Below, in pieces: positions 928 through 37,113 of a stretch of DNA of 64,000 bases (the stretch's first letter is position 1; each line of letters starts with the position of its first letter). Under the pieces are notes generated by a model that did not search any database, was not told where the DNA came from, and saw only the letters and a list, made by a program, of their open reading frames with translations. Location: contig JANJGN010000926.1 in assembly GCA_026770705.1 (NCBI GenBank), forward strand, positions 124,001 to 188,000. The letters are read 5' to 3'. Position numbers and translations under genes: made by a program. This stretch comes from Isurus oxyrinchus (taxonomy: Eukaryota).

Positions 928-1059
928 CTGAAATAACACAATAACACACTGTGGTTATCATATAGCAGTGAGTCAGTGCAGCACAGACACAGAGCCCACT
1001 GTAACCTTACACCAACGACTGGACTGTCACTTTCAATCACTTCTACACAAAGCACAGAA

Positions 1060-1525
1060 TCTAGAATCTCGACACCATCCAGGACAAAGCAGCTCGATTG
1101 ATCGACACCCCATCCACCACATTAAACATTCACTCCCTCCACCATGAACACACAGTGGCAGCAGTGTGTGTACCATCTACAAGATGCACTGCAGCAACTC
1201 AGCAAGGCTCCTTCAACAGCACCTTCCAAACCCACGACCTTTACCATCTAGAAGGACAAGGGCAGCAGACACATGGGAACACCACCACCTGGAAGTTCCC
1301 CTCCAAGTCACTCACCATCCTGACTTGGAAATATATCACCGTTCCTTCACTGTCGCTGGGTCAAAATCCTGGAGCTGCCTCCCTAACAGCACTGTGGGTG
1401 TACCTACACCACATGTACTGCAGTGGGTCAAGAGGGCAGCTCACCACCACCTTCTAAAGGGGCAATTAGGGATGGGCGTTAATGCTGACATCACCAGTGA
1501 CAGCCACATTCGATGTAAGAATTAA
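1060..1525 (+). mobile_element. CR1/L2-clade LINE 3' fragment (copies at ~3980-4445 and, minus strand, 45200-46270)
   Basis: Same sequence recurs; the longer copy at 45758-46252 encodes RT motifs (GVAQCSVLGPTIFSCFIND, ADD). Confidence 0.75.
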
Positions 1526-2064
1526 AAATCTCACAGCTCAATGTATTTATTGTGAGCCTGCGGCACACACACCCTGTCGAAGGAGCCTTTGTGGTTCCAT
1601 TGTTAATCGAAGCAGATCAGAGTTACTACAACAACTTGCATTTATATAGCACCTTTAATGTAGCAAAATGTCCCAAGGCTCATCCGGGGATTGTTAGTCA
1701 CATCTTCACCTGACTCTGAGGCACATGAGGAAATATTAGGGACAGGAGACCAACAGCTGAGTCAACAAAGTCAGTTATTAATGGGCATCTTAAAGGAGGA
1801 GCTGGAGATAGAGAATGAGATACAGACAGAGAGAGAAAGACTGAGAGAGAGAGAGAGAGAGACACAGTGAATCTCGGTCCCCAATGGCTCAGCATCCAGT
1901 CCTCTCTGGAGAAGCATTTCATTCCAAACCACACCAACCGCAGCCCAATTGCATCCCTTCCTCCCTCTCTCCCCCTCTCCCCCAGTGGGTTGTTTGCTAT
2001 TCCCAGGAATCTCAATCCCTACCCCCACCCCCACACCTCCTCACTCCCACTCCCCATTTCTCAT

Positions 2065-2313
2065 TCAGTTATGCTCGAACCTGATCTGTGCGTATTCCGT
2101 CTCCTCTTCCCTGTGGACAGACCCATCACCACTGGACATCCTCAAGACTTGGGGATTGGTGTAGAGAAACTCTTCAGGTTTGTCGGCGTTCCCATGTCCA
2201 ACATCGCCTCCCACTGGACCTTCAGAGAGACCCCGGGGAGCTAGGGTCTCCCCCTCGCTAGTTGTGTCTCTGGTTGTGTTCCGGGGCTCAGTAATCAGCA
2301 CGTTCTGTTTACC
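2065..2313 (-). CDS. Gene A terminal cytoplasmic exon (degenerate ITIM FLYTNP; ITSM-like TEYAQI)
   Basis: tttctctgtag| acceptor, phase 0, 249 nt to TGA; ends EEETEYAQIRFEHN*, typical of a Siglec-type tail. Confidence 0.88.
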   Translation of the reverse strand, partial: GKQNVLITEPRNTTRDTTSEGETLAPRGLSEGPVGGDVGHGNADKPEEFLYTNPQVLRMSSGDGSVHREEETEYAQIRFEHN

Positions 2314-2876
2314 CTACAGAGAAATGGAAACAGAAGACATCCTCACATCATTTACTGGCACTGATAGGGTTAAATTATTGTGCAGACTCGTTAATGTCAA
2401 TCATGTCTCAGTGGGTTTAACCCTCTCCCTCGCTTGGCCTAAATAGCCAAGTGGTAATGTTACTGGGTTTGTAACCCCAATATCAAGAGTTCAAATCTCA
2501 CAATGGCAAGCTATGAAACAATATAACCTCAACTGAAACAGATCAAAACAAGTTTGTATTCAAAAGAGTTAACCATCTCTCTCATGTCATATGAAAGATA
2601 CCACCTATGGTAGGGCAGCACTCACACAGTACTGACCCTCCGACAGTGCAGCACTCCCTCAGTACTGACCCTCTGACAGTGCAGCGCTCACTCAGTACTG
2701 ACCCTCTGTCAGTCTTGCACTCCCTCGGTAATGGCTCTGGTGAGTGACAGTTGGATTCTGCACTCAAGTGTCTGGTGTGAAGCTCATTAACATGCACCTT
2801 GTAATCAGAGAGAGGATGAGAGAGAGAGAAAGAGAGAGAGAGAGAAAGAAAGGGAGGTTGGGATAGAGAGAGAGAC

Positions 2877-3632
2877 TGTCATGATGCGATTAATAAATAT
2901 CATGTTATTGGAAATTATTTTTATTCACATCGGGGTTTAGTCTGTGGGTGTGTCTGTGTGTGTTTTAATTGGATTAAAGCCAGCCAGTCTGGGTACTTTG
3001 ATGTATAGTAGTTTTCAGATGTAAACTGAGGGATACAAATTTGTATTTTTAAACAGAGCATTCAACGCCTGAGAGTGAAATCTTAAACCAATCAACATTT
3101 ATTTTGTTGATAAAATTGATACTATGACAGAGGATTTATTGTTGGAAGAGATGGAGTTCAAAGGTCCTGATGATACATTGAGAATTTACATTGAAAGAGA
3201 AGCACTGGGTATAACTTGAGCAGTTTTGTGTGTGCAGAGCAGAGGCTTGTAACATCAAAGCAGCTGTAAGCCTACACCTGTCTGCAAAGGAACCAAAGTG
3301 AAAGGAACCTCATTTGGAATTTGTGAGGTGAAAATGCTTTGCCTGGTGTCTGCTTAAAGTCTATGGGTTGTCCTGGAGGAGATTATTTTGAGAATCTGTT
3401 AAAAAGTTATGATAATACTAGCTTGTAGCCATGTGCATATGTTTAACTTGAGTAAATTAATAAATGTCTCATGTTGTTTGATATAAGACCCATGTCGAGA
3501 ACTGGTGGTCTTATTCCTGAATTTAAAGCTGCATCTCAAACATTCCACTGGGAAATATAGGTTATGACAGTTGTTTAAAGTTTCCCTCTGGGATTTTAAA
3601 CAACAGCCTTTACCAGTTGTTGTGTCATAACA
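2877..3632. mobile_element. Solo-LTR-like insertion (TGTCATGA...TCATAACA), absent from the gene B intron; partial copy at 1-710
   Basis: TG...CA ends with short imperfect terminal inverted repeat; flanks are contiguous in the paralogue near 48295. Confidence 0.55.
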
Positions 3633-3767
3633 GAGAGACAGCATGATACTGAACCATTGCTGACTCCACAGGTACAAATCAGTGGGTAACTGGGCTGGGA
3701 ATCTGGGACACGTGTTGTCTACACACTGAGATTGAAGCTTTGGAGTGAGTGTAAACAGCTCCTGTAC

Positions 3768-3849
3768 CTGGTGTTTCACAGAGAGTGGACTGGGGGTCAA
3801 TGCAATGTCTCTGGTCCCTGAAACTCTCTCCTCCATCGCTGTCTTTCTC
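3768..3849 (-). CDS. Gene A cytoplasmic exon 1 (KRKTAMEERVSGTRDIALTPSPLSVKHQ)
   Basis: ttattgcag| acceptor, |GTACAG donor; phase 2 matches the TM exon and phase 0 matches the terminal exon. Confidence 0.85.
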
Positions 3850-4571
3850 CTGCAATAACACAATATCACACTGTGGTTATCACATAGCAGAGAGTGAGTG
3901 CAGCACAGACACAGAGCCCACTGTAACCTTACACCAATAACTGGACTGTCTCTTTAAATCACTTCTGCACAAAGCACAGAATCAAGAAACTCGACACCAT
4001 CCAGGACAAAGCAGCCCGATTGATCTACACCCCATCCACCACATTAAACATTCACTCCCTCCACCATGAACACACAGTGGAAGCAGTGTGTGTACCATCT
4101 ACAAGATGCACTGCAGCAACTCAGCAAGGCTCCTTCAACAGCACCTTCCAAACCCACGACCTCTACCATCTAGAAGGACAAGGGCAGCAGACACATGGGA
4201 ACACCACCACCTGGAAGTTCCCCTCCAAGTCACTCACCATCCTGACTTGGAAATATATCATCGTTCCTTCACTGTCGCTGAGTCAAACTCCTGGAACTCC
4301 CTCTCTAACAGCACTGTGGGTGTACCTACACCACATGGACTGCAGCGGGTCAAGAAGGCAGCTCACCACCTCATTCTCAAGGACAATTAGAGATGGGCAA
4401 TTTAATAACGGCCTCACCAGTGACAGTCACATTCGATTAAAGAATTTAATATCTCACAGCTCAGGAGGAAGCCACTCAGCCCATCGTGCCTGTTCTGGCC
4501 CTTTGTAAAAACTGTCCAAATAGTCCTAAGCAAATGTTTAGATTAAAATCAAGTTAAATCTTCAGACTTAC

Positions 4572-4668
4572 TTTCTCACACAGATGAAGATGAAGATTCC
4601 AGCCAGGAAAACACTCAACATGATCCCAGCCGTGAACAATCCTACTGTCCATTTACTGGAGTCTCTAC
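4572..4668 (-). CDS. Gene A transmembrane exon (GRDSSKWTVGLFTAGIMLSVFLAGIFIFICVRK), uncharged TM
   Basis: tttttacag| acceptor, |GTAAGT donor, 97 nt, phase 1/2; hydrophobic ~23-aa stretch followed by basic residues. Confidence 0.9.
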
Positions 4669-17388: not shown

Positions 17389-17428
17389 CTTGGAGAAGTG
17401 ACAGGAGGAAGTAAGATTTCCCGATCAT
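17389..17428 (-). CDS. Gene A leader exon, coding part (MIGKSYFLLSLLQ); exon begins at 17470
   Basis: ATG plus hydrophobic core, |GTAAT donor in phase 1 joining the V exon (…LLQVGLSQEW); acceptor tttctctttcag at 17471. Confidence 0.85.
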
Positions 17429-23880: not shown

Positions 23881-24249
23881 CAGAAATGTGAAGCTGGGTT
23901 ACAGGGTAATAGTTATGGCTCGGACCATTGTCAAATTCTATTCTGAAAAAATAAGGTCCTGCATCTTCCCGTCTGATGTTGTTTATAATCAGGGAACAGT
24001 CGCCATCTTTCAGGTCTCCAGACAGCCGGGTCCGTTGGCGGAACCGTGGTAACTCGTGACTGTGATCCTTGGAGTGAAAGGCAATGGCAGCCCAGGGAAT
24101 CTGATTCTCATTATTAAACCAGACTCCACCTCGCGGTTGGTTTTCCAGACACGATGGATAACTGTAATGACAAGGAATCTGTACACATGAACCTTCCTGC
24201 GCTGTCACCTCTCGTGGAGTGTCACATTTCCACTCTTGTGAGGGTTCAA
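23881..24249 (-). CDS. Gene C V-set exon V2 (essential Arg retained; extra Cys in WKCD and YPSC)
   Basis: 369 nt, phase 1/1, open, YFFRIE motif. Confidence 0.92.
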
Positions 24250-24309
24250 CTGGGGAGAGAAATCTCAATATTTAACTCTGGATGGTTTGTGGATCCACTA
24301 GACTCAACT

Positions 24310-25105
24310 TTACAGATGAGGCTGAATTGGGGGGATGGTCAATACTGAGGAGGACGACAACAAATTATTTTGGCAGGAAGAATAGAAAAACAGGATATTA
24401 TTTAAATGGAGAGAGGCTGCAGAATGCAGTACAGAGGGATCTAGGTGTCCTTGTACATGAATCACAGAAAGTCAGCATTCAGGAACACCACGGAATGAGG
24501 AAGGCAAGTGGAATGTTGGCCTTTATTGCAAGTGGATGGAGTATAAAAGGAGGGAAGTCTTGCAACAGCTGCACAGGGTGTTAGTGAGATTGTAACAGGA
24601 TCATTGTGTACAGGCAGTTCAGAGAAGCTTCACTGGGCTGATTCCTGGGATTAAAGGGTTTGTCCTGTGAGGAAATGTTGAGCAGGTTGGGCCTGTATCC
24701 ATTGGAGTTTAGAAGAATGAGGGGTGACCTTATTGAAACATATCCGATTCCGAGGGGGCTTGACAGGGTGGATGCTGGGAGGATGTTTCCCCCTCGTGGG
24801 GGAATCTAGAACCAGGGAGCACAGTTTCGGAATGAGGGCTCCCCCATTTAAGACTGAGATGAGGAGGAATTTCCTCTCTCAGAGGGGCGCTAGCCTGTGG
24901 AATTCTCTTCCCCAGAGAGCAGTGGAGGCTGGGCCATTGAATAGACTCAAGGCTGAGTGAGGCAGGTTTTTGATCGACAAGGGGGTCAAGGGTTTGGGGG
25001 ACAGGCAGGAAAATGGAGTTAAGGCCACAACCAGATCAGCAAGAGCAGGCTCGAGGGGCTGAATGGCCTGCTCCTGTCCCTATTTCTTATGTTCCTACAT
25101 TCTTA
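24310..25105 (+). mobile_element. CR1 LINE 3' fragment (paralogous copy ~59480-60310)
   Basis: YYLNGERLQ..QRDLGVLVH and FKTEMRRNFLSQR motifs. Confidence 0.85.
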
Positions 25106-26726
25106 CCTTCTTAAAATATTAAAGCTGCAGAATAAACATGCAAGTGACTGACCCGCTCGACCCACCTTCCATCTGGGGGTCCCATGGGGAGGACCCTTCC
25201 TGAGCCAGATCCACCAGCCAACATGGTCTGGATCCGAGCACAGGAGACACGGGGGGGAGTGACTAACAGGCTCCTTGTGACAGGCCCCGTCTGTCCAATG
25301 GCTGGCTTTCAGCTGCCAAGGCCAGAGTGGTCCTTGCTAAAACCGGCTCAGGACAGGCCAGGACCCCTGTGCAGACCCCCTCCAGCGCTGCAGCCTCTGT
25401 ACAAACCCCTCATGCGCTTGTGGAGAGACACAAACAAGGCTGCACATTACCGAGGAGAATCCCCTCTACGGACTAAGGTGCTGACTCATCACCTTAAACT
25501 CAGCAAATGAGGAGGCTCTCGCTCGGTATCGGGACTTGGCATTCGCTCAATAAAAATAATCAAATTACATTTTGGTCAGAAATCTAAGGAGGTTGTACAT
25601 TCCCTCAAAAATAAGACTCGATCTGGGGTCTAGGGTCAAAGGGCAACAACTTATATTTACACAACAACTTGAACATGACAAATCACCCCAAGGTGCTACA
25701 CAGGAGCGTCATAAAACAAAGTATGTCACGCAGACACATGTGGAGATATTAGCGACAGCTGGCCAGAAGAGGACGGTGTTATGGAGAATCTTCAAAGGGG
25801 GATGAAATGGATAGTGAGAGAGAGACAGAGCGATAGAGAGAGTGAGAGAGAGGGACGAAGAGGGGTTGAGGGAGGGTATTACAGAGCTCGGGTCCCAGGC
25901 AGCTGAAGGCACGGCCGCCGATGTTGGAGTGATGGGATCGGGGGATGGTCAAGAGGCTGGAATTGGATGAGAGCAGAGACCTCAGAGGGTTGGAGGGGCT
26001 GGAGGAGGTTACAGAGATAAGGAGGGTTGTAGTGATTGGAGGAGGTTACAGAGATAGGGATGGTTGTAGAGGCTGGAAAATTTAAGAGAGATTGGGAGAG
26101 TGTAGGGTATGGAGGAGTTCGCAGAGCTAGAGAGGTTTGTAGTGGCTGGAGGAGGTTGCAGAGATTGGTAGGTTTGTTGTGCAGGATGATTTTACAGATA
26201 TAGGGAAGCAGCAGAGGCTTGAAGAGGTTACAGAGATAGGGAGGGTTGTAGGTACTGGAGGAGGACGAGGAGATTACGGAGATAGTGAGGAAACAAAGAT
26301 GAAAATTTGGACATTGAGACTTTGCTTGACCAGGAGCCAGTCTCGGTCATCGAGCAGAGCGGGTGATAAGGGAACGGGACTTGGTGTGAGTAAGGACGTG
26401 GTCAGCAGTTTTGGATGGCCTCAAGTTTATGGAGTGTAGAGCGTGTGTTGGAACAGTCGAGTCTGGAGGTAATGAAGGCATGGATGAGGGTTTCAGCAGC
26501 AGATGAGCTGAGACAGGGTGATGTCGTGCGATGTTACGGAGGTGGAAATAGACGGTGTTAGTGAGGGCGCAGATATGAGGCCGGAAGCTCATCTCAGGAT
26601 CAAATGGGACAACAAAGCTGTGAACAGTTGAAAACAAAGAAAACTGCGGATGCTGGAAATCTAAAACAAAAACAGAATTACCTGGAAAAACTCAGTAGGT
26701 CTGGCAGCATCGGCGGAGGAGAAAAG

Positions 26727-26765
26727 AGTTGACGTTTCGAGTCCTCATGACCCTTCGACAGAACT
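26727..26765 (-). ncRNA. Minimal type I hammerhead-ribozyme-like motif in the Penelope terminus (mirror copy 30379-30417, + strand)
   Basis: AGTT-CTGTCGA-A-GGGTC-ATGAG-GACTC-GAAAC-GTC-AACT: stem I, variant core, stem II, GAAA, GUC triplet. Confidence 0.65.
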
Positions 26766-27166
26766 TGATTTCGAGTCCAGGAAAGAGTTGAAATATAAGC
26801 TGGTTTAAGGTGTGTGGGGGGGGGGGGGGGGGGAAGGAGAGAGAGAGAGAGACAGAGGTGCTTGTGTAGACAAACAAGCAGTGATAGAAGCAGATCATCA
26901 AAAGATGTCAGTAACAATGGTACCAAAGAACACATAGGTGTTAAAGTTAAAGTTGGTGATATTATCTAAACGAATGTGCTAATTAAGAATGGATGGTAGG
27001 GCACTCAAGGTACAGCTCTAGTGGGGGTGGGGGGAGCATAAAGGATTTTAAAATATTTAAAAATAATGGAAATAGGTGGGAAAAGAAAAATCTATAAAAT
27101 TTATAGGGAAAAAAAAGGGGGAAAAAAAGGGGGAAACAGAAAGGGGGTGGGGATGGGGGAGGGAGC

Positions 27167-29737
27167 TCACGACCTAAAGTTATTGAATTCAATATTCAGA
27201 CCGGAAGGCTGTAAGGTGCCTAGTCGGAAGATGAGGTGTTGTTCCTCCAGTTTGCGTTGGGCTTCACTGGAACAATGCAGTAAGCCAAGGACAGACATGT
27301 GGGCAAGAGAGCAGGGTGGAGTGTTAAAATGGCAAGCCACAGGGAGGTTTGGGTCATTCTTGCGGACAGACCGCAGGTGTTCTGCAAAGCGGTCGCCCAG
27401 TTTACGTTTGGTCTCTCCAATGTAGAGGAGACCACATTGGGAGCAACGAATGCAGTAGACTAAGTTGGGTGAAATGCAAGTGAAATGCTGCTTCACTTGA
27501 AAGGAATGTTTGGGCCCTTGGACGGTGAGGAGAGAGGAAGTGAAGGGGCAGGTGTTACATCTTTTGCGTGGGCATGGGGTGGTGCCATAGGAGGGGGTTG
27601 AGGAGTAGGGGGTGATGGAGGAGTGGACCAGGGTGTCCCGGAGGGAGCGATCTCTACGGAATGCCGATAAGGGGGGTGAAGGGAAGATGTGTTTGGTGGT
27701 GGCATCATGCTGGAGTTGGCGGAAATGGCGGAGGATGATCCTTTGAATGCGGAGGCTGGTGGGGTGATAAGTGAGGACAAGGGGGACCCTATCATGTTTC
27801 TGGGAGGGAGGAGAAGGCGTGAGGGCGGATGCGCGGGAGATGGGCCGGACACGGTTGAGGGCCCTGTCAACGACCGTGGGTGGAAAACCTCGGTTAAGGA
27901 AGAAGGAGGACATGTCAGAGGAACCGTTTTTGAAGGTAGCATCATCGGAACAGATGCGACGAAGGCGAAGGAACTGGGAGAATGGGATGGAGTCCTTACA
28001 GGAAGCGGGGTGTGAGGAGCTGTAGTCGAGGTAGCTGTGGGAGTCGGTGGGTTTGTAGTGGATATTGGTGGACAGTCTATCACCAGAGATTGAGACAGAG
28101 AGGTCAAGGAAGGGAAGGGAAGTGTCAGAGATGGACCACGTGAAAATGATGGAGGGGTGGAGATTGGAAGCAAAATTAATAAATTTTTCCAAGTCCCGAC
28201 GAGAGCATGAAGCAGCACCGAAGTAATCATCGATGTACCGGAGAAAAAGTTGTGGAAGGGGGCCGGGGTAGGACTGCAACAAGGAATGTTCCACATATCC
28301 CATAAAGAGACAGGCATAGCTGGGGCCCATGCGGGTACCCATAGCCACACCTTTTATTTGGAGAAAGTGAGAGGAGTTGAAGGAGAAATTGTTCAACGTG
28401 AGAACAAGTTCAGCCAGACGGAGGAGAGTAGTGGTGGATGGGGATTGTTCGGGCCTCTGTTCGAGGAAGAAGCTAAGGGCCCTCAGACCATCCTGGTGGG
28501 GGATGGAGGTGTAGAGGGATTGGACGTCCATGGTGAAGAGGAAGCGGTTGGAGCCAGGGAACTGGAAATTGTTGATGTGACGTAAGGTGTCAGAGGAATC
28601 ACGGATGTAGGTGGGAAGGGACTGGACAAGGGGAGAGAGAAGGGAGTCAAGATAACGAGAAATGAGTTCTGTGGGGCAGGAGCAAGCTGAGACGATCGGT
28701 CTACCAGGGCAGTTCTGTTTGTGGATTTTGGGTAGGAGATAGAAGCGGGCCGTCCGAGGTTGGGCGACTATCAGGTTGGAAGCTGTGGGAGGGAGATCCC
28801 CAGAGGAGATGAGGTCAGTGACAGTCCTGGAAACAATGGCTTGATGTTCAGTGGTGGGGTCATGGTCGAGGGAGAGGTAGGAGGAAGTGTCTGCGAGTTG
28901 ACGCTCAGCCTCCGCGAGGTAGAGGTCAGTGCGCCAGACAACAACAGCACCACCCTTGTCAGCGGGTTTGATGACAATGTCAGGGTTGGACCTGAGAGAA
29001 TGGAGTGCAGTAAGTTCAGAGAGAGACAGGTTAGAATGGGTGAGAGGAGTAGAGAAATTGAGACGACTAATGTCGCGCCGACAGTTCTCAATGAAAAGAT
29101 CAAGAGAAGGTAAGAATCCAGAGGGAGGGGTCCAGGTGGAGGGAGAATATTGGAGATGGGTAAAAGGATCTGTTGAACTGGGAGAGGACTCCTGCCCAAA
29201 GAAGTGAGCCCGGAGACGAAGACGGCGAAAGAAGAGTTCAGCATCATGCCGAGCCCGAAATTCATTGAGGTGAGGGCGTAAGGGTATGAAACTAAGTCCT
29301 TTGCTGAGCACTGAACGTTCAGCATCGGAGAGGGGAAGGTCAGGGGGTATAGTGAATACACGGCTGGGGCTGGGATTGGAAGATGGGGTGGGGACGGAGG
29401 GACAGGCTGGGGTGGAGGGTCCTAGATGGGTGTTGGTGTCGATGAGTTGTTGGAGCTTGCGTTCCTTAGCAGTTGAGAGAAAGAGAAAAAGTTTCTTGTT
29501 GAGGCGTCGGATGAGCCGAAGGATAAAATGAAACTGAGGGCACGCGCAGCTTTGAAAAAGGGTACGGCGGTGCTGCTGGAGGGAAAGGTCGAGTGTGTTC
29601 ATATGGCGGCGCATGGCACTGAGTGTGGATTTCAGAATGTGACGGGAACAGCAGTCTGAGAAACGTTTTATGTCCCGGAGATACCGGTAATCCTGGGTGG
29701 GTTCGAAAGATGAGGGGTGGAATTTCAGTTGAAATCC
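27167..29737 (-). CDS. Penelope-like reverse transcriptase + GIY-YIG endonuclease (5'-truncated; frame stays open to ATG 30079 through the inverted repeat)
   Basis: KPADKGGAVV, LPKIHK, GRPIVS, QIKGVAMGT, RYIDD, NLVYCIRC..C..LYIGET...RFAEH, GLN; no stops. Confidence 0.93.
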   Translation of the reverse strand, partial: GFQLKFHPSSFEPTQDYRYLRDIKRFSDCCSRHILKSTLSAMRRHMNTLDLSLQQHRRTLFQSCACPQFHFILRLIRRLNKKLFLFLSTAKERKLQQLIDTNTHLGPSTPACPSVPTPSSNPSPSRVFTIPPDLPLSDAERSVLSKGLSFIPLRPHLNEFRARHDAELFFRRLRLRAHFFGQESSPSSTDPFTHLQYSPSTWTPPSGFLPSLDLFIENCRRDISRLNFSTPLTHSNLSLSELTALHSLRSNPDIVIKPADKGGAVVVWRTDLYLAEAERQLADTSSYLSLDHDPTTEHQAIVSRTVTDLISSGDLPPTASNLIVAQPRTARFYLLPKIHKQNCPGRPIVSACSCPTELISRYLDSLLSPLVQSLPTYIRDSSDTLRHINNFQFPGSNRFLFTMDVQSLYTSIPHQDGLRALSFFLEQRPEQSPSTTTLLRLAELVLTLNNFSFNSSHFLQIKGVAMGTRMGPSYACLFMGYVEHSLLQSYPGPLPQLFLRYIDDYFGAASCSRRDLEKFINFASNLHPSIIFTWSISDTSLPFLDLSVSISGDRLSTNIHYKPTDSHSYLDYSSSHPASCKDSIPFSQFLRLRRICSDDATFKNGSSDMSSFFLNRGFPPTVVDRALNRVRPISRASALTPSPPSQKHDRVPLVLTYHPTSLRIQRIILRHFRQLQHDATTKHIFPSPPLSAFRRDRSLRDTLVHSSITPYSSTPSYGTTPCPRKRCNTCPFTSSLLTVQGPKHSFQVKQHFTCISPNLVYCIRCSQCGLLYIGETKRKLGDRFAEHLRSVRKNDPNLPVACHFNTPPCSLAHMSVLGLLHCSSEAQRKLEEQHLIFRLGTLQPSGLNIEFNNFRS

Positions 29738-31387
29738 ACGTAAACTGGGCGACCGCTTTGCAGAACACCTGCGGTCTGTCCGCAAGAATGACCCAAACCT
29801 CCCTGTGGCTTGCCATTTTAACACTCCACCCTGCTCTCTTGCCCACATGTCTGTCCTTGGCTTACTGCATTGTTCCAGTGAAGCCCAACGCAAACTGGAG
29901 GAACAACACCTCATCTTCCGACTAGGCACCTTACAGCCTTCCGGTCTGAATATTGAATTCAATAACTTTAGGTCGTGAGCTCCCTCCCCCATCCCCACCC
30001 CCTTTCTGTTTCCCCCTTTTTTTCCCCCTTTTTTTTCCCTATAAATTTTATAGATTTTTCTTTTCCCACCTATTTCCATTATTTTTAAATATTTTAAAAT
30101 CCTTTATGCTCCCCCCACCCCCACTAGAGCTGTACCTTGAGTGCCCTACCATCCATTCTTAATTAGCACATTCGTTTAGATAATATCACCAACTTTAACT
30201 TTAACACCTATGTGTTCTTTGGTACCATTGTTACTGACATCTTTTGATGATCTGCTTCTATCACTGCTTGTTTGTCTACACAAGCACCTCTGTCTCTCTC
30301 TCTCTCTCCTTCCCCCCCCCCCCCCCCCACACACCTTAAACCAGCTTATATTTCAACTCTTTCCTGGACTCGAAATCAAGTTCTGTCGAAGGGTCATGAG
30401 GACTCGAAACGTCAACTCTTTTCTCCTCCGCCGATGCTGCCAGACCTACTGAGTTTTTCCAGGTAATTCTGTTTTTGTTTTAAAGCTGTGAACAGATTGG
30501 CTTCAATCTCAGAGAGCTGCCAGGGAGAGGAATGGAGTTGGTAGCGAGGGAACAGAGTTTGGAGCGGGGAATGAAGACAATGGCTTCAGTCTTTCCAATA
30601 TTTAATTGGAGGGAATTTCTGCCCATCCAGTACTGGATGTCGGATAAGCAGCCTGATAATTTAGCAGCAGTGGAGGAGTCGAGAGAGGTGGTGGTGAGGT
30701 AGAGCTGGGCATCCTCAGTGGACAGGTGAAAACTAACACTGTTCAGATGATGCTGCAAAGCCATTGCAAGTGATTCTCTGGCTACGATGAGATGGATAAG
30801 AATGGAGCCAGGGGAGAGCAGTCCCACCCAGCTGGACGACAGTGGAGAGGGGTTGGAGGAAGATGGTGTGGTCGAGCGTGTCAAAGGCTGCAGACAGATC
30901 GAGAAGGAGGAGGAGGGAAAGTTGACCTTTGTCACAGTCACACAGGATGCCATTTGTGACCTTGATAAGAGCTGTTTCAGCACAGTGGCTGGGGTGGGAA
31001 CCTGATTGGAGGGATTCAAACATGGAGTTCCGGGAAAGATGGGAACGGATTCGGGAGATGGAAACACGTTCAAGGACTTTGCAGGTGAAAGAGAGGCTGG
31101 AGATGGGACGGGGGTTTACACGGACAGTGTGAGGGGTGGAAGGTGTAGTGGGGAGGAGACACTTCACTCAGGGGGGAGGTGTCATCACCCCTCAGCTCGG
31201 TTTACGTTACAGCTATGATGTGGATTCAATCACACACAATAAGCTCATGGATCTGGGAGCAGAAATAAACAAATCATTAAAAATAGTGACGCTGGTTAAC
31301 ACGGTCAAAAAACAAGCAAATCAAACACTATTATTTCCCATTGAGTGTTGGATGTGAATTGTTGAGTAATTATAACGCAGCACTTAC

Positions 31388-31774
31388 CAGAAACCTGAAG
31401 CTGGGTTACAGGATAGTAGCTGTATCTATTTCTGCTGTCAAATTCTATTCTGAAATAATAATATCCTGCATCTTCCCGTCTGATGTTGTTTATAATCAGG
31501 GAACAGTCGCCATCTTTCAGGTCTCCAGACAGCCGGGTCCGATGGCGGAACCGTGTTAACTCGCGATTGTGATCCTTGGAGTGAAAAGCTATTGTCCCTC
31601 TAGACCTTGTATTCCATGTATTCCATGTGTACCATTTCACGTACCAGATTCCGACACGTGCTCTCCCTACTACACGTGCTGGATATCTGTAGTTACATGG
31701 AATCTGTACACACGAACCTTCCTGCGCTGTCACCTCTCGTGGAGTTTCACCTTTCCACTCTTGTGACAGTCCAA
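31388..31774 (-). CDS. Gene C V-set exon V1 (divergent loops, essential Arg retained in YYYFRIE)
   Basis: 387 nt, phase 1/1, open, splice sites intact. Confidence 0.92.
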
Positions 31775-32399
31775 CTGGGGAGAGAAATATCAATATTTAA
31801 CTCTGGATGGTTTGTAGATCCACTAGACTCGATATCCACCCCCTCCTTCACGGAGTCAGAGTGGCTGCAATGTGGACCATCTACAGGACACACAGGGATC
31901 TCCCCAATGTTTCACAATGGATAGAAGAGAATCCTGGACACAAAAGCGGAAATATTCATGCTACATTGGCTCATGGTCCTCAGGACCCTGTTTGTGTACA
32001 AACCTGCTCTGCAACAGAACTGAAGTTGGGGAAAATCCATTTGGAATTCCATTGTCCAGGGCATTGGGTTAACTTGCTAAGTTTGTTTTAAATCTAACAT
32101 TTATTTTTGGTCTGTTGCCTTAAAGGAAGTGTAACTGGGAGTCAGGTTAATTAGGAATTTTAGGAGTTATTATAGCAGTCATTGTAGTCTTATGTATGTG
32201 CTTGAAATCTTTTATTTTGATGACAAATATTTTAATTTATTGTTTTAAATCTCTAAATGTCTTGATGGAGTTATTGCTTCTGAATTCAGTGCACAATCAT
32301 AACAAATACAAATTGCAAAATCATTATGATAGTGTGACCAAGTTTCTCTCATGGACTTGGTCTGCCTGGCACACATCACCTGCCAAGTGATAACACTGT

Positions 32400-33707
32400 T
32401 GTAATATGCCTTTCAGGGACAGCAGCATGACATCACTCGAGGGGAAGTGTGTCATGTGATTTTTAGGAACTGGAGTTGGCTTAAGTAAGTTCGATGTATA
32501 TTTGTGTGTGTTAGGCATAAGGTCTATCTTTAAGTTCAAGTTTAGCTTGTATTTCTGTATTTGGGTGTTTAGAAAAGGGGGAACTTGACTTAAAAAGAAG
32601 CCAGCATTCCATTGAGGTTTTATGTCTGTTGAAGGGAAGTCAAAACAAATACAAGGTGTAAGAAACTGTGCTGTTGCCTAGCAACAGTGATCCAGAGGGA
32701 AGGACCCACAGAGACCGAGAAAAACAGAAAAGTACTTTCAGTTCTGTTGAAAGGAGTTGCCAGGAGAAGCAGCAAAGGAGCGGGACAGATAGTCAGTCCC
32801 AAAGTAAAGATGAAGCCAAAACTATCGAGTGGAACAGGAGAAAGGGCCCAAGAAAACCTTCTAGTCAAATCTGGAAAAGGCCCTGTTAAGTGAAGTTAAG
32901 AGTGAGGAGCGGACAAAGGCTTCAAGCTTAAAGGAAGAAGCAGCAGGACACAGACCTAAAGCAAAATAGGCTTGTGAGAAGCCAGAAGATCCTAGGAGAC
33001 ACCACAGGTTGGTGACTCATTACTACGGCCATGTGAAGCCATGGTGTTCCATTGACACGGCTGAGCATTGGAGAGACAGGGCGTGGAAGGAAGGCTGAAT
33101 GCACGTGGCGATCCAGGGGGCAGGAACATGGGAAGGAGAGTTTGAAATAGTGAAAGTGGTCCCTTGTGGAAGGTGCCTGAGTGAAAGTGTCATGTTGGAG
33201 AAGATTCCAAAGTGTGTTCTTGGAGAGTGGAGATTGGAAACCCTCATATGGATATCTCAGTTCAGTGAGACTGGTTGGCTCACAGTGTAACAAGCGTCTG
33301 GGGACAGCTGAGGAGAGAACCATAGCATTTGTTTCAAGTGGGCTCTGTCACTTGGTTTAAGAGTGTGGTGTCCCTGACCACAGGTCGTCTATTGGTTTAC
33401 ATGGACTGTGTACTTAGTGTGAACATGATAGTATAAGATAGTTATTGTAACTTGTGTTATCTTTGTGAATCTGTATATATCTGCAAAGATATAGGTCTGG
33501 GTGAAGGAGTAATGTAATATAGTTTGTCTTTCCTAGTTTAATAAATGTTTTATTCTTTTGTTAGAAGTTCATCAGATGATTCCTGTGACTCTGTTCAGTA
33601 GCCGCACTCCACATTCCTAAATAAAAAATAAAAGTTAGGACCTATCAAGCTGAGTTCCACCCTGGGATCTGACTTGCCCAGTAGTAACATCAGCTGGGAT
33701 GATAACA
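32400..33707. mobile_element. Solo-LTR-like element (partial copy from ~63618 to window end)
   Basis: TGT...ACA ends, AATAAA near 3' end, no coding capacity. Confidence 0.4.
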
Positions 33708-34499
33708 CCATCCAGTCCAAGTTTCACTTTGGCCTGTGAGCAGAACACAGCTCACACAGTTTGGCTGCAGGTGTCTCCCAGCTTTCTATCTTTGTATATC
33801 TGTTCTCATGTCCCCGTTCTAAATAAATGAACCCACAATGTATTTACCCAATTCCGAATCAGTGGCTGGTGCCTTTATATCATTATAAAAACACAGCATG
33901 GTGATCAGCGGTGGCCAAACATTCTGGCAGCAAGATTCAGTACAGGTATGACGTGGTGAACAGCCTTAGATCGAGCTACATGACATGAGATGACCCTCGA
34001 CGCTTTGGTCAGACCACAACAGAGACAAAGCATCAGAGAGGGTTGAAATCGCAGTGTACTGACTGCTCAGGAAACCTTTGAAGACACAGTGACGGGAAAG
34101 AGCTCAAGTAAAGAGCTGGGGAGCAGACGGATCCCTCGTGGTGAGATTACAGCACACGGCCTGTAGGTCAGTGAGTGGGACAGTGCGTATCGCCAGGACC
34201 AGCAGCGGGTTAGCTCAGTCAGGGAAGGCGAATGACCAGGGTGTGGGCTGGATTGATAGTGAGCGAGGGAGAGTCAAACACACAAAAACCATTATAAAAA
34301 TCAGCCCAGAGAAGTTAGTGATTATAACGGGCGGCTTCGAGATTGCTGAACAGCAAATTGAATAAAAAACAAAGACTCCATTACTCCGTGGTGTGTTCCT
34401 GCCACAACCCGTCTTCGTGGGCGGAGCTTCGGAAAAGCACGTGAAAGGGGCTAAAGCGACACTCATCCCAGGTCCTGTAGGAGAAGGAAGGTCAAAGGA

Positions 34500-35250
34500 A
34501 TATTGTCAGAATGTCCACGAAATTCCCCAGTTTGAACTGGGATGTAGCTGACCGACTATCTGAATTCAGAATGTTTAAACAGCGTACAGAGCTCTGGTTT
34601 CCTGATTCAGCTGTGACTGAACCAGACGGGCAAGCCATGAAAATTCACCTCGCGATTGGGAATGAAGGTCTACACAGGCTGAACACGTCAGGATTAACAG
34701 CAGAAGAGCGAAAGGATCCCCAATAAATATGGACGACATTGGAAGACAGGTTCAGAATCAGGTGAAACTCCATATTCATCAACTAGAGTTTATGTCATTT
34801 CATCAGCCTACACAATCCATAGACCACTTCATCAGCCGATGTAGAGAAAAGGGTACGCACTGTGATTTCAAACACAGAGCCTGCAGACAGAGTTGTTGAG
34901 TTGGTGATCGCTTCCATTGCCATGGAAGCCTTCCAGAAAGATCTGCTAGATAAGACCAAAACCTATAGCATTGAAGAGCTACTCAAGGATGGACATAAAT
35001 ACGAAGTAATCCTCGCAGGTCAACGAAGCTTACAGGTCCTCAGTACAACATCAATTGTTGACACACTCACTAGAACATCCAAACCTAGTGAGACGTGTGG
35101 AAGGTGTGGCCTTCTGCAGGCACCAAGGAAATGCCCAGCTTTCCACCAATCCTGCAAGGCTTGTGGCAGAAAGGGCTATTGACAGCGGCAGGGCACTAGA
35201 GCAAAGGCTGATGCAGTTACAAAGAGCCGTGCGCTGATCCAAACAGACCC
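34500..35250 (+). mobile_element. Degenerate Gypsy-type gag with zinc-knuckle remnants
   Basis: FRMFKQRTELWF...IHLAIGNEG and CGRCG...CPAFHQSCKACGRKG; stops and frameshifts. Confidence 0.65.
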
Positions 35251-37073
35251 TACACAATGGGGAACCTTCAAGCAATAAGAATGACCATCCGCTATCCCAT
35301 CAGGAACATATACATGTGGTGATTGACAAACCAGGAAATGGCAATGATGTGCATGGCGAGACGAGGAGCGGTGATCGATATTCCACCTCTCACACATATC
35401 CTGACGTGGCTTGCCAATAAATTGTGGATTCTGGTCTTTATTGATCTTTCTGGGCACATCGAATAAACTGAAAATGTCCCATAGGGGTGGGATTTTCTGG
35501 CCCCACCCACTGCCAGGATTGTCCGGTCCGGCCGAAAGCTAATGGTTTTATGTCTGTCCCAGTCTCAGAAACTACCCCATTACCTCTGTTCATGACATAA
35601 CATTGAAATATGCAGAAAGTTTCAACAATATTGGCAGTTTCAAGGGAGCTGCATCATTACACCTGCAGGAGAATGCAAGTCTGTCAGACTCCTTGCATTC
35701 AAATAAATACAATCCAACTTTGTCACACTATCCTGTGCCTTAACTGGCCAATAATTTCTATGCCTTCCAGGTTCACTTTCTCTCTCTTCTAATTTTGGCT
35801 GTGCCTCTCCCTCTGCTGAACCTCCTCTCGGGATCCCATCCCCTGCCATGTTAGTTTAAAGCCCCCCCAATTGCATCAAGGGCAAAATGCCAATTGAAAC
35901 CAGGGACAACATCCAAGAATGACAATCCCACAGATCACTGTGAGCATTTAAAGACACCTCCAGACAAGGTTACCACCACAAGATCTGGGCGTCACAGCAG
36001 ATCACGTCAATGCGTTAGAGACTCAAATATTAGCAGATCTAAACACTTGTGTAATTGTCAAGAAATTTGAAAATGATACCAGAAACCTTTTGTTCCCTGT
36101 CCTTCTCAAAGATCCATCCCTGCAGCGGTAGCCTTAAGAGTTATTGATGTGGGGCTTAATTTATCAGATTGTAGAATGATCTGGAAGAGAAGGAAGCCAT
36201 TTGCCCATCGAACATGTGCTGGGCCTTTGAAAGATCTGTCCAATTATTCCCACTCTCACCTCTGCTCTCTCCTCCACAGCCCTGCAAAATGTTCCCTTCA
36301 AGTATTTATCCAGTTCCCCTTCTGAAAGTTCCTGTTGAATCTGCTTCCACCGCCCTTTCAGGCAGTGAGTCAATGGTCTCTCTCTGAGCTGCAAAGTGCT
36401 CAGATTCTGTGAAATTTAAACTCTGCAGCAGGTCAGAGACACTCATGATAACTCAGAATATTTGACAGTTTTACACACGGACAGCTTTGCCTCCCTTCTC
36501 TCTTTCAGTTATCTTGCTCCCTTATTGAAGTATCTAGCAAGGTGAGAATGGACAGGAAGTGTGACACTGAACAGCCTGTCTATTCTAGGAGCTGCTGTGT
36601 TGTCTTCATGGGAAATTCTGACTAAAATCAGCAATAGACACAAAATTTCAGGGCATTGTTATCCGAGTCCTAACATCAGGATAGACCTCAACCCCCAGGT
36701 TTTATCCCTGATTCTCTATTCAGCCGATCGCTCCCCTGTCACTGGCTGACCTACACTGACTCCCAGTCCAGCAATGACTCAAATTTCAAATTCTCATCAT
36801 CGATTTCTTACCCCACCATCCCCCCTCTACACTCCCGATCCCTGTAACCTCCTCCAACCCTAAAAACCTCTGAGATCTCTGCTCTCCTCCAATTCTGCTG
36901 TCAGGCAGGGAGTCAGTGTATGTCAGTGAGCACAGGGATGATGGGTGAATGGGACTTGGTGTGAGTTTGTACACTGGCTCACTGCTGAATCAGTTCCCAA
37001 TCAGAGCTCAATAAGAATGATCTTTTACAAAGACTATTCACCATAAATCTGTCTGAGCTGACGATGATATTAC

Positions 37074-37113
37074 CTTGGAGAAGTGACAGGAGGAAGTAAG
37101 ATTTCCCGATCAT
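37074..37113 (-). CDS. Gene C leader exon, coding part (MIGKSYFLLSLLQ); exon begins at 37155
   Basis: Same peptide as the gene A leader; flanks 36930-37400 match 17240-17720. Confidence 0.85.

Follow-up and report, generated by a model that had tools for sequence, protein, structure and literature searches.

Siglecs as a rule carry one V-set domain, and the exception cited is Siglec-12 (PMC7876704, PMC6288428). This primate protein (Siglec-XII, S2V) starts with a pair of V-set domains at its N terminus, ahead of its C2-set domains, and is described as the only Siglec with two (PMC7876704). Here we describe gene A, which lies on the reverse strand of a 64,000-nucleotide stretch of the genome of the shark Isurus oxyrinchus (assembly GCA_026770705.1, G000 in the coordinates below; contig JANJGN010000926.1, positions 124,001 to 188,000; hereafter the window). 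Like Siglec-12, gene A has two V-set exons, V1 and V2, and then a C2-set exon, all of which would be joined in one chain. Unlike Siglec-12, the shark genes have from 1 to 10 V exons, occur in hundreds of copies and include activating as well as inhibitory types; the essential arginine (Arg) is retained in their inner V, which also has a dedicated cysteine (Cys) in its BC loop. We infer that the shark multi-V arrangement arose independently of Siglec-12; the name 'Siglec 12' that many shark V-V models bear in RefSeq was given automatically. Two splice variants of Siglec-12 are reportedly the subject of a paper, to go by its title.

In MAG (Siglec-4), a bond from C37 in the V domain to C165 in the first C2 domain links Ig1 to Ig2 (PMC5150538). 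The shark V and C2 exons have the same Arg and Cys pattern as the V-C2 module of MAG, sialoadhesin, CD33 and CD22, but in those proteins the single V bonds C2, whereas in the shark genes a second V occupies that place. The paired Siglecs 5/14 and 11/16 have near-identical ectodomains on either an inhibitory tail or a short tail with a charged transmembrane (TM) residue (PMC6288428, PMC13358205). The shark cluster likewise mixes Arg-TM and uncharged-TM forms, although mammals have two such pairs with one V each and the shark cluster has hundreds of units with shuffled numbers of V and C2. Arrays of the Dscam1 type consist of mutually exclusive, tandem same-phase immunoglobulin (Ig) exons within one gene. 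Gene A also has tandem same-phase Ig exons, but these can be included jointly in frame, have long introns between them and differ in kind, and the family is diverse from gene to gene, not within the exon set of a single gene. By frame, intron length and exon equivalence gene A does not pass for a mutually exclusive exon array and, with its V domains joined as we propose, it departs from the one-V architecture of Siglecs.

We propose that gene A encodes a tandem V1-V2-C2 chain, with V1 outer and V2 inner, in which disulfides would staple the V domains, and we put the probability of this reading at roughly 0.7. We consider it the best reading because the inner-type V has a Cys where C2 carries the partner of the V-C2 disulfide, and because the features of the V exons depend on position in a way that only a shared chain would explain. 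The exons and splice sites of gene A are all intact (Table 1), and it likely specifies a single receptor of about 410 residues, arranged as leader-V1-V2-C2-TM(Arg)-short tail. The positions, open frames and phase 1/1 that the initial annotation gave for V1 and V2 are exact, and we add consensus AG/GT sites for both. The essential Arg that it reported in each is present, in F-strand codons at 31451-31449 (V1) and 23944-23942 (V2), and the loops that it described as strongly different are where these exons, which are about 80% identical, chiefly differ. V1 has a long, variable CC' loop and a spare interdomain Cys (31712-31710) and has no Cys in the BC loop; V2 has a spare interdomain Cys and an extra Cys in the BC loop (24151-24149). 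We also note two additional, family-rare Cys in gene A (24249-22771), one near the start of V2 (2/106 V) and one before the B strand of the first C2 exon, Ca (1/63).

Gene A has each of the features defining the family that a sequence can reveal and so appears Siglec-like, with sialic-acid binding predicted. V1 and V2 both score above cut-off for Pfam V-set and Ig_CD22, Ca matches Pfam C2-set_2, and the Y-x-F-R of V1 aligns with that of sialoadhesin, marking the F-strand Arg. Among solved structures (PDB) the top relatives of V1 are sialoadhesin, Siglec-5, MAG, Siglec-10 and CD33. The longer database relatives all come from sharks and rays (103/103), the nearest (90-94%) being from Carcharodon and Cetorhinus. 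The TM Arg, which the initial annotation does not mention, is kept in 25/25 copies of the activating-type TM exon and, together with the short tail, makes up the pattern of an activating paired receptor, for which association with an adaptor is predicted.

The position-specific features emerge from a detailed sample of 1.63 Mb, taken from the surroundings of close V1 matches, that contains 64 V-bearing units and 106 full V exons; four leaderless single V were set aside, and counts are taken over paralogs, which are not independent. All 56 V directly behind a leader, and all 28 first V, start with G-L-S and none of the 56 with x-P-S; later V (n=42) start with x-P-S in 30 cases, G-L-S in 11 and otherwise in one. 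Under the (-3,-1) signal-peptidase rule, a signal peptide would be completed by G-L-S but not by E-P-S. A Cys in the BC loop, at B-strand Cys +7, is present in 41/42 later V, in 0/32 first V of multi-V genes and in 5/28 single V, four of these five being in disabled genes (three with a broken V, one with a lost ATG, a bad acceptor and a TM frameshift). The essential Arg is found in 41/42 inner V and in 17/28 first V of multi-V genes (lost in 11/28), and mean amino-acid identity is 91% among inner V and 77% among first V (40% in the CC' loop). Only 1/42 inner V is broken, and the ratio of nonsynonymous to synonymous substitution rates (dN/dS) among inner V is 0.56; positive selection was not detected in any class by pooled pairwise dN/dS, which was below 1 throughout (CC' loop 0.84 in first V, 0.98 in single V). 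An inner V exon is not the equivalent of a first V exon: the two differ in N terminus, in Cys and in variability.

The same distribution is seen in other species. Among 103 database proteins, the BC-loop Cys is present in 34/45 distinct V that follow a V, in 1/76 N-terminal V (this one belonging to a leaderless model) and in 0/9 others. It occurs in six shark and ray groups (grouped by name), regularly in five shark groups and in 2/6 cases in rays, and its presence in these species shows its age. We note that P0004, a model from the stingray Hemitrygon, repeats V-C2 units, and that its V domains located after C2 are without the BC-loop Cys, as expected if this Cys serves V-V junctions.

Which Cys pair in Siglecs is indicated by the MAG bond together with an alignment in which the shark V and Ca Cys fall on the interdomain-disulfide Cys of CD33. 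The partner Cys of C2 is present in 63/63 Ca exons, at B-strand Cys +6, and the spare Cys of V is kept in 32/32 first and 42/42 later V of multi-V genes. An AlphaFold model of P0012 has three Ig folds (predicted local distance difference test, pLDDT, 64.5; predicted template modelling score, pTM, 0.41), and the V2-C2 part of a model of a natural V-V-C2 protein has MAG (Z 17.3, root-mean-square deviation 4.0, 214 aligned) and CD33 (Z 16.5) as its best structural matches. The predicted complex of V1 and V2 as separate chains scored 0.00, a result that carries no weight either way.

Protein models and splicing geometry are consistent with joint inclusion of the two V. Adjacent V-V domains occur in 30/103 of the RefSeq proteins, and two models from related sharks, P0126 and P0132 (404 and 406 residues), are laid out as leader-V-V-C2-TM(Arg), as in gene A. 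The V-V introns span 1,644-7,139 nt (42 cases) with GT-AG ends, the lengths of V1 and V2 (387 + 369 nt) keep the frame, and a search for a mechanism barring joint inclusion (frameshift, very short intron or U2/U12 mismatch) found none. As for docking-site/selector pairing in gene A, the inverted matches on either side of V1 are just three and all weak (51-68 nt, 77-84%). We also examined contigs presumed to be of RNA type from four runs (two samples, two studies), at 90% likeness and with 15 of 288 joints listed; joints in such contigs are family-level, as any paralog can yield them. A leader-V joint, 31774/37074, is found in 3/4 runs, a V-Ca joint in 4/4 runs, and a Ca-TM joint (21177/22771) that skips the remnant of a second C2 exon in 4/4 runs. 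The 15 of 288 joints listed include no leader-V2 and no V1-Ca joint, and when short fragments derived from transcripts were sought across the V-V joint, three RefSeq proteins were the only matches.

We suggest the following mechanism, in which the disulfides are predicted from position and conservation and the ligands are putative. Default splicing would include both V exons of gene A, and the spare Cys of V1 would bond the BC-loop Cys of V2 (+7) instead of that of C2 (+6). The spare Cys of V2 would in turn bond C2, giving a chain V1-S-S-V2-S-S-C2. The inner V could be repeated 1-9 times, which would produce rods of differing reach and sialic-acid valency, and V1 would likely be a variable outer sensor. 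The TM Arg would recruit an adaptor bearing an immunoreceptor tyrosine-based activation motif (DAP12 or FcR-gamma), and gene A would then be the activating partner to neighbours whose tails carry tyrosine motifs. This arrangement predicts an asymmetry: loss of an inner V would leave all Cys paired, whereas loss of V1 would leave a free Cys at the tip and, with E-P-S exons, a poor signal-peptidase site.

Table 1. Exons of gene A and its neighbours genes B and C, and the retroelement between V1 and V2 (window coordinates unless given by contig).
Feature	Position	Strand	Remarks
Gene A leader exon	37113-37074	-	40 nt: ATG, 13 codons + 1 nt, GT donor; signal peptide
Gene A V1, first-type V-set exon	31774-31388	-	387 nt, AG/GT, phase 1/1, stop-free; G-L-S start (signal-peptide end)
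Gene A V2, inner-type V-set exon	24249-23881	-	369 nt, AG/GT, phase 1/1, stop-free; E-P-S start
Gene A Ca, first C2-set exon	23067-22771	-	BC-loop Cys, the partner of the V-set Cys in Siglecs
Gene A second C2 exon, 3' remnant (5' part gone)	22447-22296	-	bypassed by the Ca-TM joint
Gene A activating-type TM exon	21177-21038	-	Arg near start of hydrophobic stretch; short tyrosine-free tail; stop 21040-21038
Penelope-like retroelement, young	26614-30481	- (same strand as gene A)	reverse transcriptase above Pfam cut-off, GIY-YIG below cut-off
Gene B leader	G000:C926:192269-192308		outside the window, 5.3 kb upstream of first V
Gene B first-type V	62989-62612	-	in-frame TGA 62867-62865; Thr replaces essential Arg
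Gene B inner-type V	59419-59051	-	E-P-S start, BC-loop Cys, Arg
Gene C leader	17428-17389	-	single-V comparison gene
Gene C single first-type V	16526-16158	-	

Several observations weigh against a stapled tandem chain. A V1-V2 joint is absent among the 15 of 288 contig joints listed, although this is weak evidence, since only skips are listed and most V-V contigs would align the end of V2 to the start of V2. A white-shark RefSeq locus has an isoform, P0125, that is without V1. In each of the three multi-V genes whose first V is broken, of which gene B is one, the downstream exons that were read are open, and in a ten-V gene the second V is frameshifted while other exons are open. In a tree of 87 open V exons, from which broken exons were left out, inner V fall into what is essentially a single branch (41 inner V with 3 single V, support 99/97), as expected from one evolutionary event copied many times, so that the within-genome counts of the BC-loop Cys reflect one origin rather than many. 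Lastly, 11/45 V-after-V domains of other species (4/6 in rays) are without this Cys.

The strongest of the competing explanations, which we nevertheless consider improbable, is that regulated alternative splicing is the main mode, with cassette V exons yielding V1-C2, V2-C2 and V1-V2-C2 forms of differing specificity and gene B skipping its dead V. All V exons are symmetric (phase 1/1), as such a scheme would need, and 11/42 inner V still start with G-L-S. However, the E-P-S start found in V2 of genes A and B never stands directly behind a leader (0/56), inner V are near-invariant, so that choosing among them would add little specificity, and the 15 of 288 joints listed contain leader joints to V of the G-L-S type and none to V2. 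Isoforms can be cited on its behalf: the white-shark locus (XP_041037226-230) has both V-V and V1-less forms, and the catshark RefSeq isoforms X1-X3 (XP_038670868-874) set differing first and inner V on shared downstream exons. In every one of the catshark isoforms a first-type V precedes the inner V, and the V2 of P0125 begins G-L-S and shares its 32 starting residues with V1, so that mis-placed reads could explain the V1-less model. Skipping of V1 is probably minor at most. Of the outcomes put forward in the initial annotation, the V1-V2-C2 tandem is the one supported, by the position-specific exon features and the leader-V-V-C2-TM(Arg) models; an equivalent choice between V1-C2 and V2-C2 finds no support, given that the search for an exclusion mechanism found none, that V2 is without a signal-peptide end and that V2 has gained a Cys.

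As initially annotated, gene B has the layout of gene A and a stop in its upstream V. Downstream, open frames run through its Ca, Cb, Cc and TM exons and through both tail exons, ending in an inhibitory-type tail. These open exons fit skipping and also fit a stop acquired recently among copies with 96-98% likeness. The statement that a functional gene B must skip its upstream V holds as logic; it does not hold as evidence of skipping, since 10/28 single-V exons are broken, in genes that skipping could not rescue, and since four paralogs have the first-V subtype of gene B in open form (in a fifth a different stop breaks it). Because dead genes are this common and the subtype is open elsewhere, we think it most likely that gene B is a young pseudogene rather than an obligate skipper.

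That no leader lies between V1 and V2 had been claimed from inspection and agrees with our searches, in which BLAST, a sliding match of the leader and its donor (46 nt) along both strands of the window, and a separate de novo scan of the V-V introns for an ATG, a hydrophobic stretch and a GT found no credible hidden leader in the V-V intron of either gene. The sliding match was perfect (46/46) at 37113 and, in gene C, at 17428 only, the next best being 25/46. The de novo scan gave six leader candidates in the V1-V2 intron of gene A and three in the V-V intron of gene B; the only candidate as hydrophobic as the true leader was rejected, as it sits within the open reading frame of a retroelement.

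A second, still less probable alternative accepts that V-V is translated and holds that the extra Cys forms an interchain dimer bond or is a neutral passenger, in which case the stapled rod would be wrong. Its single origin in the inner-V lineage, its absence from some V-V proteins (11/45), its offset of +7 rather than the +6 of C2 and the two further rare Cys of gene A would all be compatible with this. The Cys is nonetheless kept across distant sharks and follows V rather than C2, as in P0004, where V after C2 is without it; moreover, the spare Cys of V1 is never lost (32/32), as expected if it has a partner. That the V pair is a relic of local duplication, with gene A or one V unused and V1-V2 splicing disrupted by a retroelement, is very unlikely: the cluster holds many pseudogenes (V broken in 10/28 single-V genes), the RNA evidence is family-level only and gene A alone has a 7.1-kb V-V intron holding a young element with a 746-bp hairpin, but 32/64 sampled V-bearing units are multi-V, only 1/42 inner V is broken with dN/dS at 0.56, and the exons and splice sites of gene A are all intact.

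The element in question, absent from the initial annotation, is a Penelope-like element of 3.9 kb that makes up half of the V1-V2 intron of gene A. It has an open frame of 978 codons (30103-27170), an inverted repeat of 746 bp with one mismatch (26662-27407 / 29738-30482) and a 14-bp direct repeat at its flanks. The matching place in gene B is without the element, and RNA-type contigs join 26613 to 30482, the empty site, which may derive from paralogs or from an empty allele.

A more tentative extension of the tandem V1-V2-C2 chain concerns ligands. As the first V often has no sialic-acid Arg (11/28) and would sit on a rod of 1-9 Arg-bearing inner V, it is possible, though we think it doubtful, that the variable tip reads pathogen or non-self while the rod reads sialic acid multivalently. 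Were this true, it would be a division of labour between tip and rod unknown in mammalian Siglecs, and the gain of a single BC-loop Cys would have made the V-set domain a self-stapling repeat that replaces C2 as disulfide partner. The Siglec-like cluster of this shark is very large, half of its sampled genes are multi-V, and the conserved Cys amounts to a concrete, testable rule for attaching extra domains. The cluster would add a large family of activating and inhibitory receptors to the immunity of cartilaginous fish, and a natural design for a multivalent binder of sialic acid. Automatic RefSeq models already show the multi-V layout, so that it is less of a surprise. Searches of the literature for shark Siglecs found no description of the cluster, its position rule or its scale; subscription reviews were outside their scope, as were supplements (e.g. 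Supplementary file 9 of PMC8455134), which may list these genes, and the portions seen of PMC8455134 and PMC13262535 mention Siglecs in passing.

Across the assembly, exact matches number 584 for a 27-nt V-exon motif, 345 for a 30-nt leader motif and 208 for a 32-nt inner-V motif, with reversed controls at 0. As the V motif finds 84/106 V exons locally, we extrapolate to a total near 740 V exons, in some 450 V-bearing units, figures in which both haplotypes may be counted. Within the detailed sample (n=64), 32 units have one V exon, 28 have two, two have three, one has five and one has seven, so that half (32/64) are multi-V; a further gene with ten extends the range to 1-10. The two-V layout is routine in this gene family. 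TM exon matches in the 1.63 Mb comprise 25 Arg-TM and 38 uncharged-TM. The ten-V gene (G000:C52:2280275-2301058, L160-L162) is of inhibitory type and has one first-type V, with its B-strand Cys lost, and nine inner-type V at a spacing of about 2 kb.

Other layouts in the assembly differ from that of gene A. At three loci (G000:C323:329828, C150:403168, C52:2748481) a leaderless V1-V2-(Ca)-TM lies directly downstream of TM-less leader-V-Ca-Cb units; there one leader could serve either first-type V, a setting in which true alternative V choice could arise. At G000:C150:523265-528558 and C52:1790577-1794109 a single V is preceded by as many as four leader exons in tandem, with a spacing of about 1.77 kb. 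Genes B and C both have an uncharged TM and two tyrosine motifs in the tail. In gene C the fourth C2-type exon, Cd (7075-6802), has 274 nt as compared with 276 in paralogs and is shifted in frame, so that gene C is either dead or skips Cd. A pair of cytoplasmic exons is repeated twice in gene C (928-4667) and four times in a gene on C71 (G000:C71:2204423-2215270), and since every repeated pair closes with a stop, the tails may be alternatives. Finally, Cb (C2) exons number from 0 to 9 per gene (G000:C926:110721-100628; C71:2140751-2152508), so that stalk length may be tuned at two levels.

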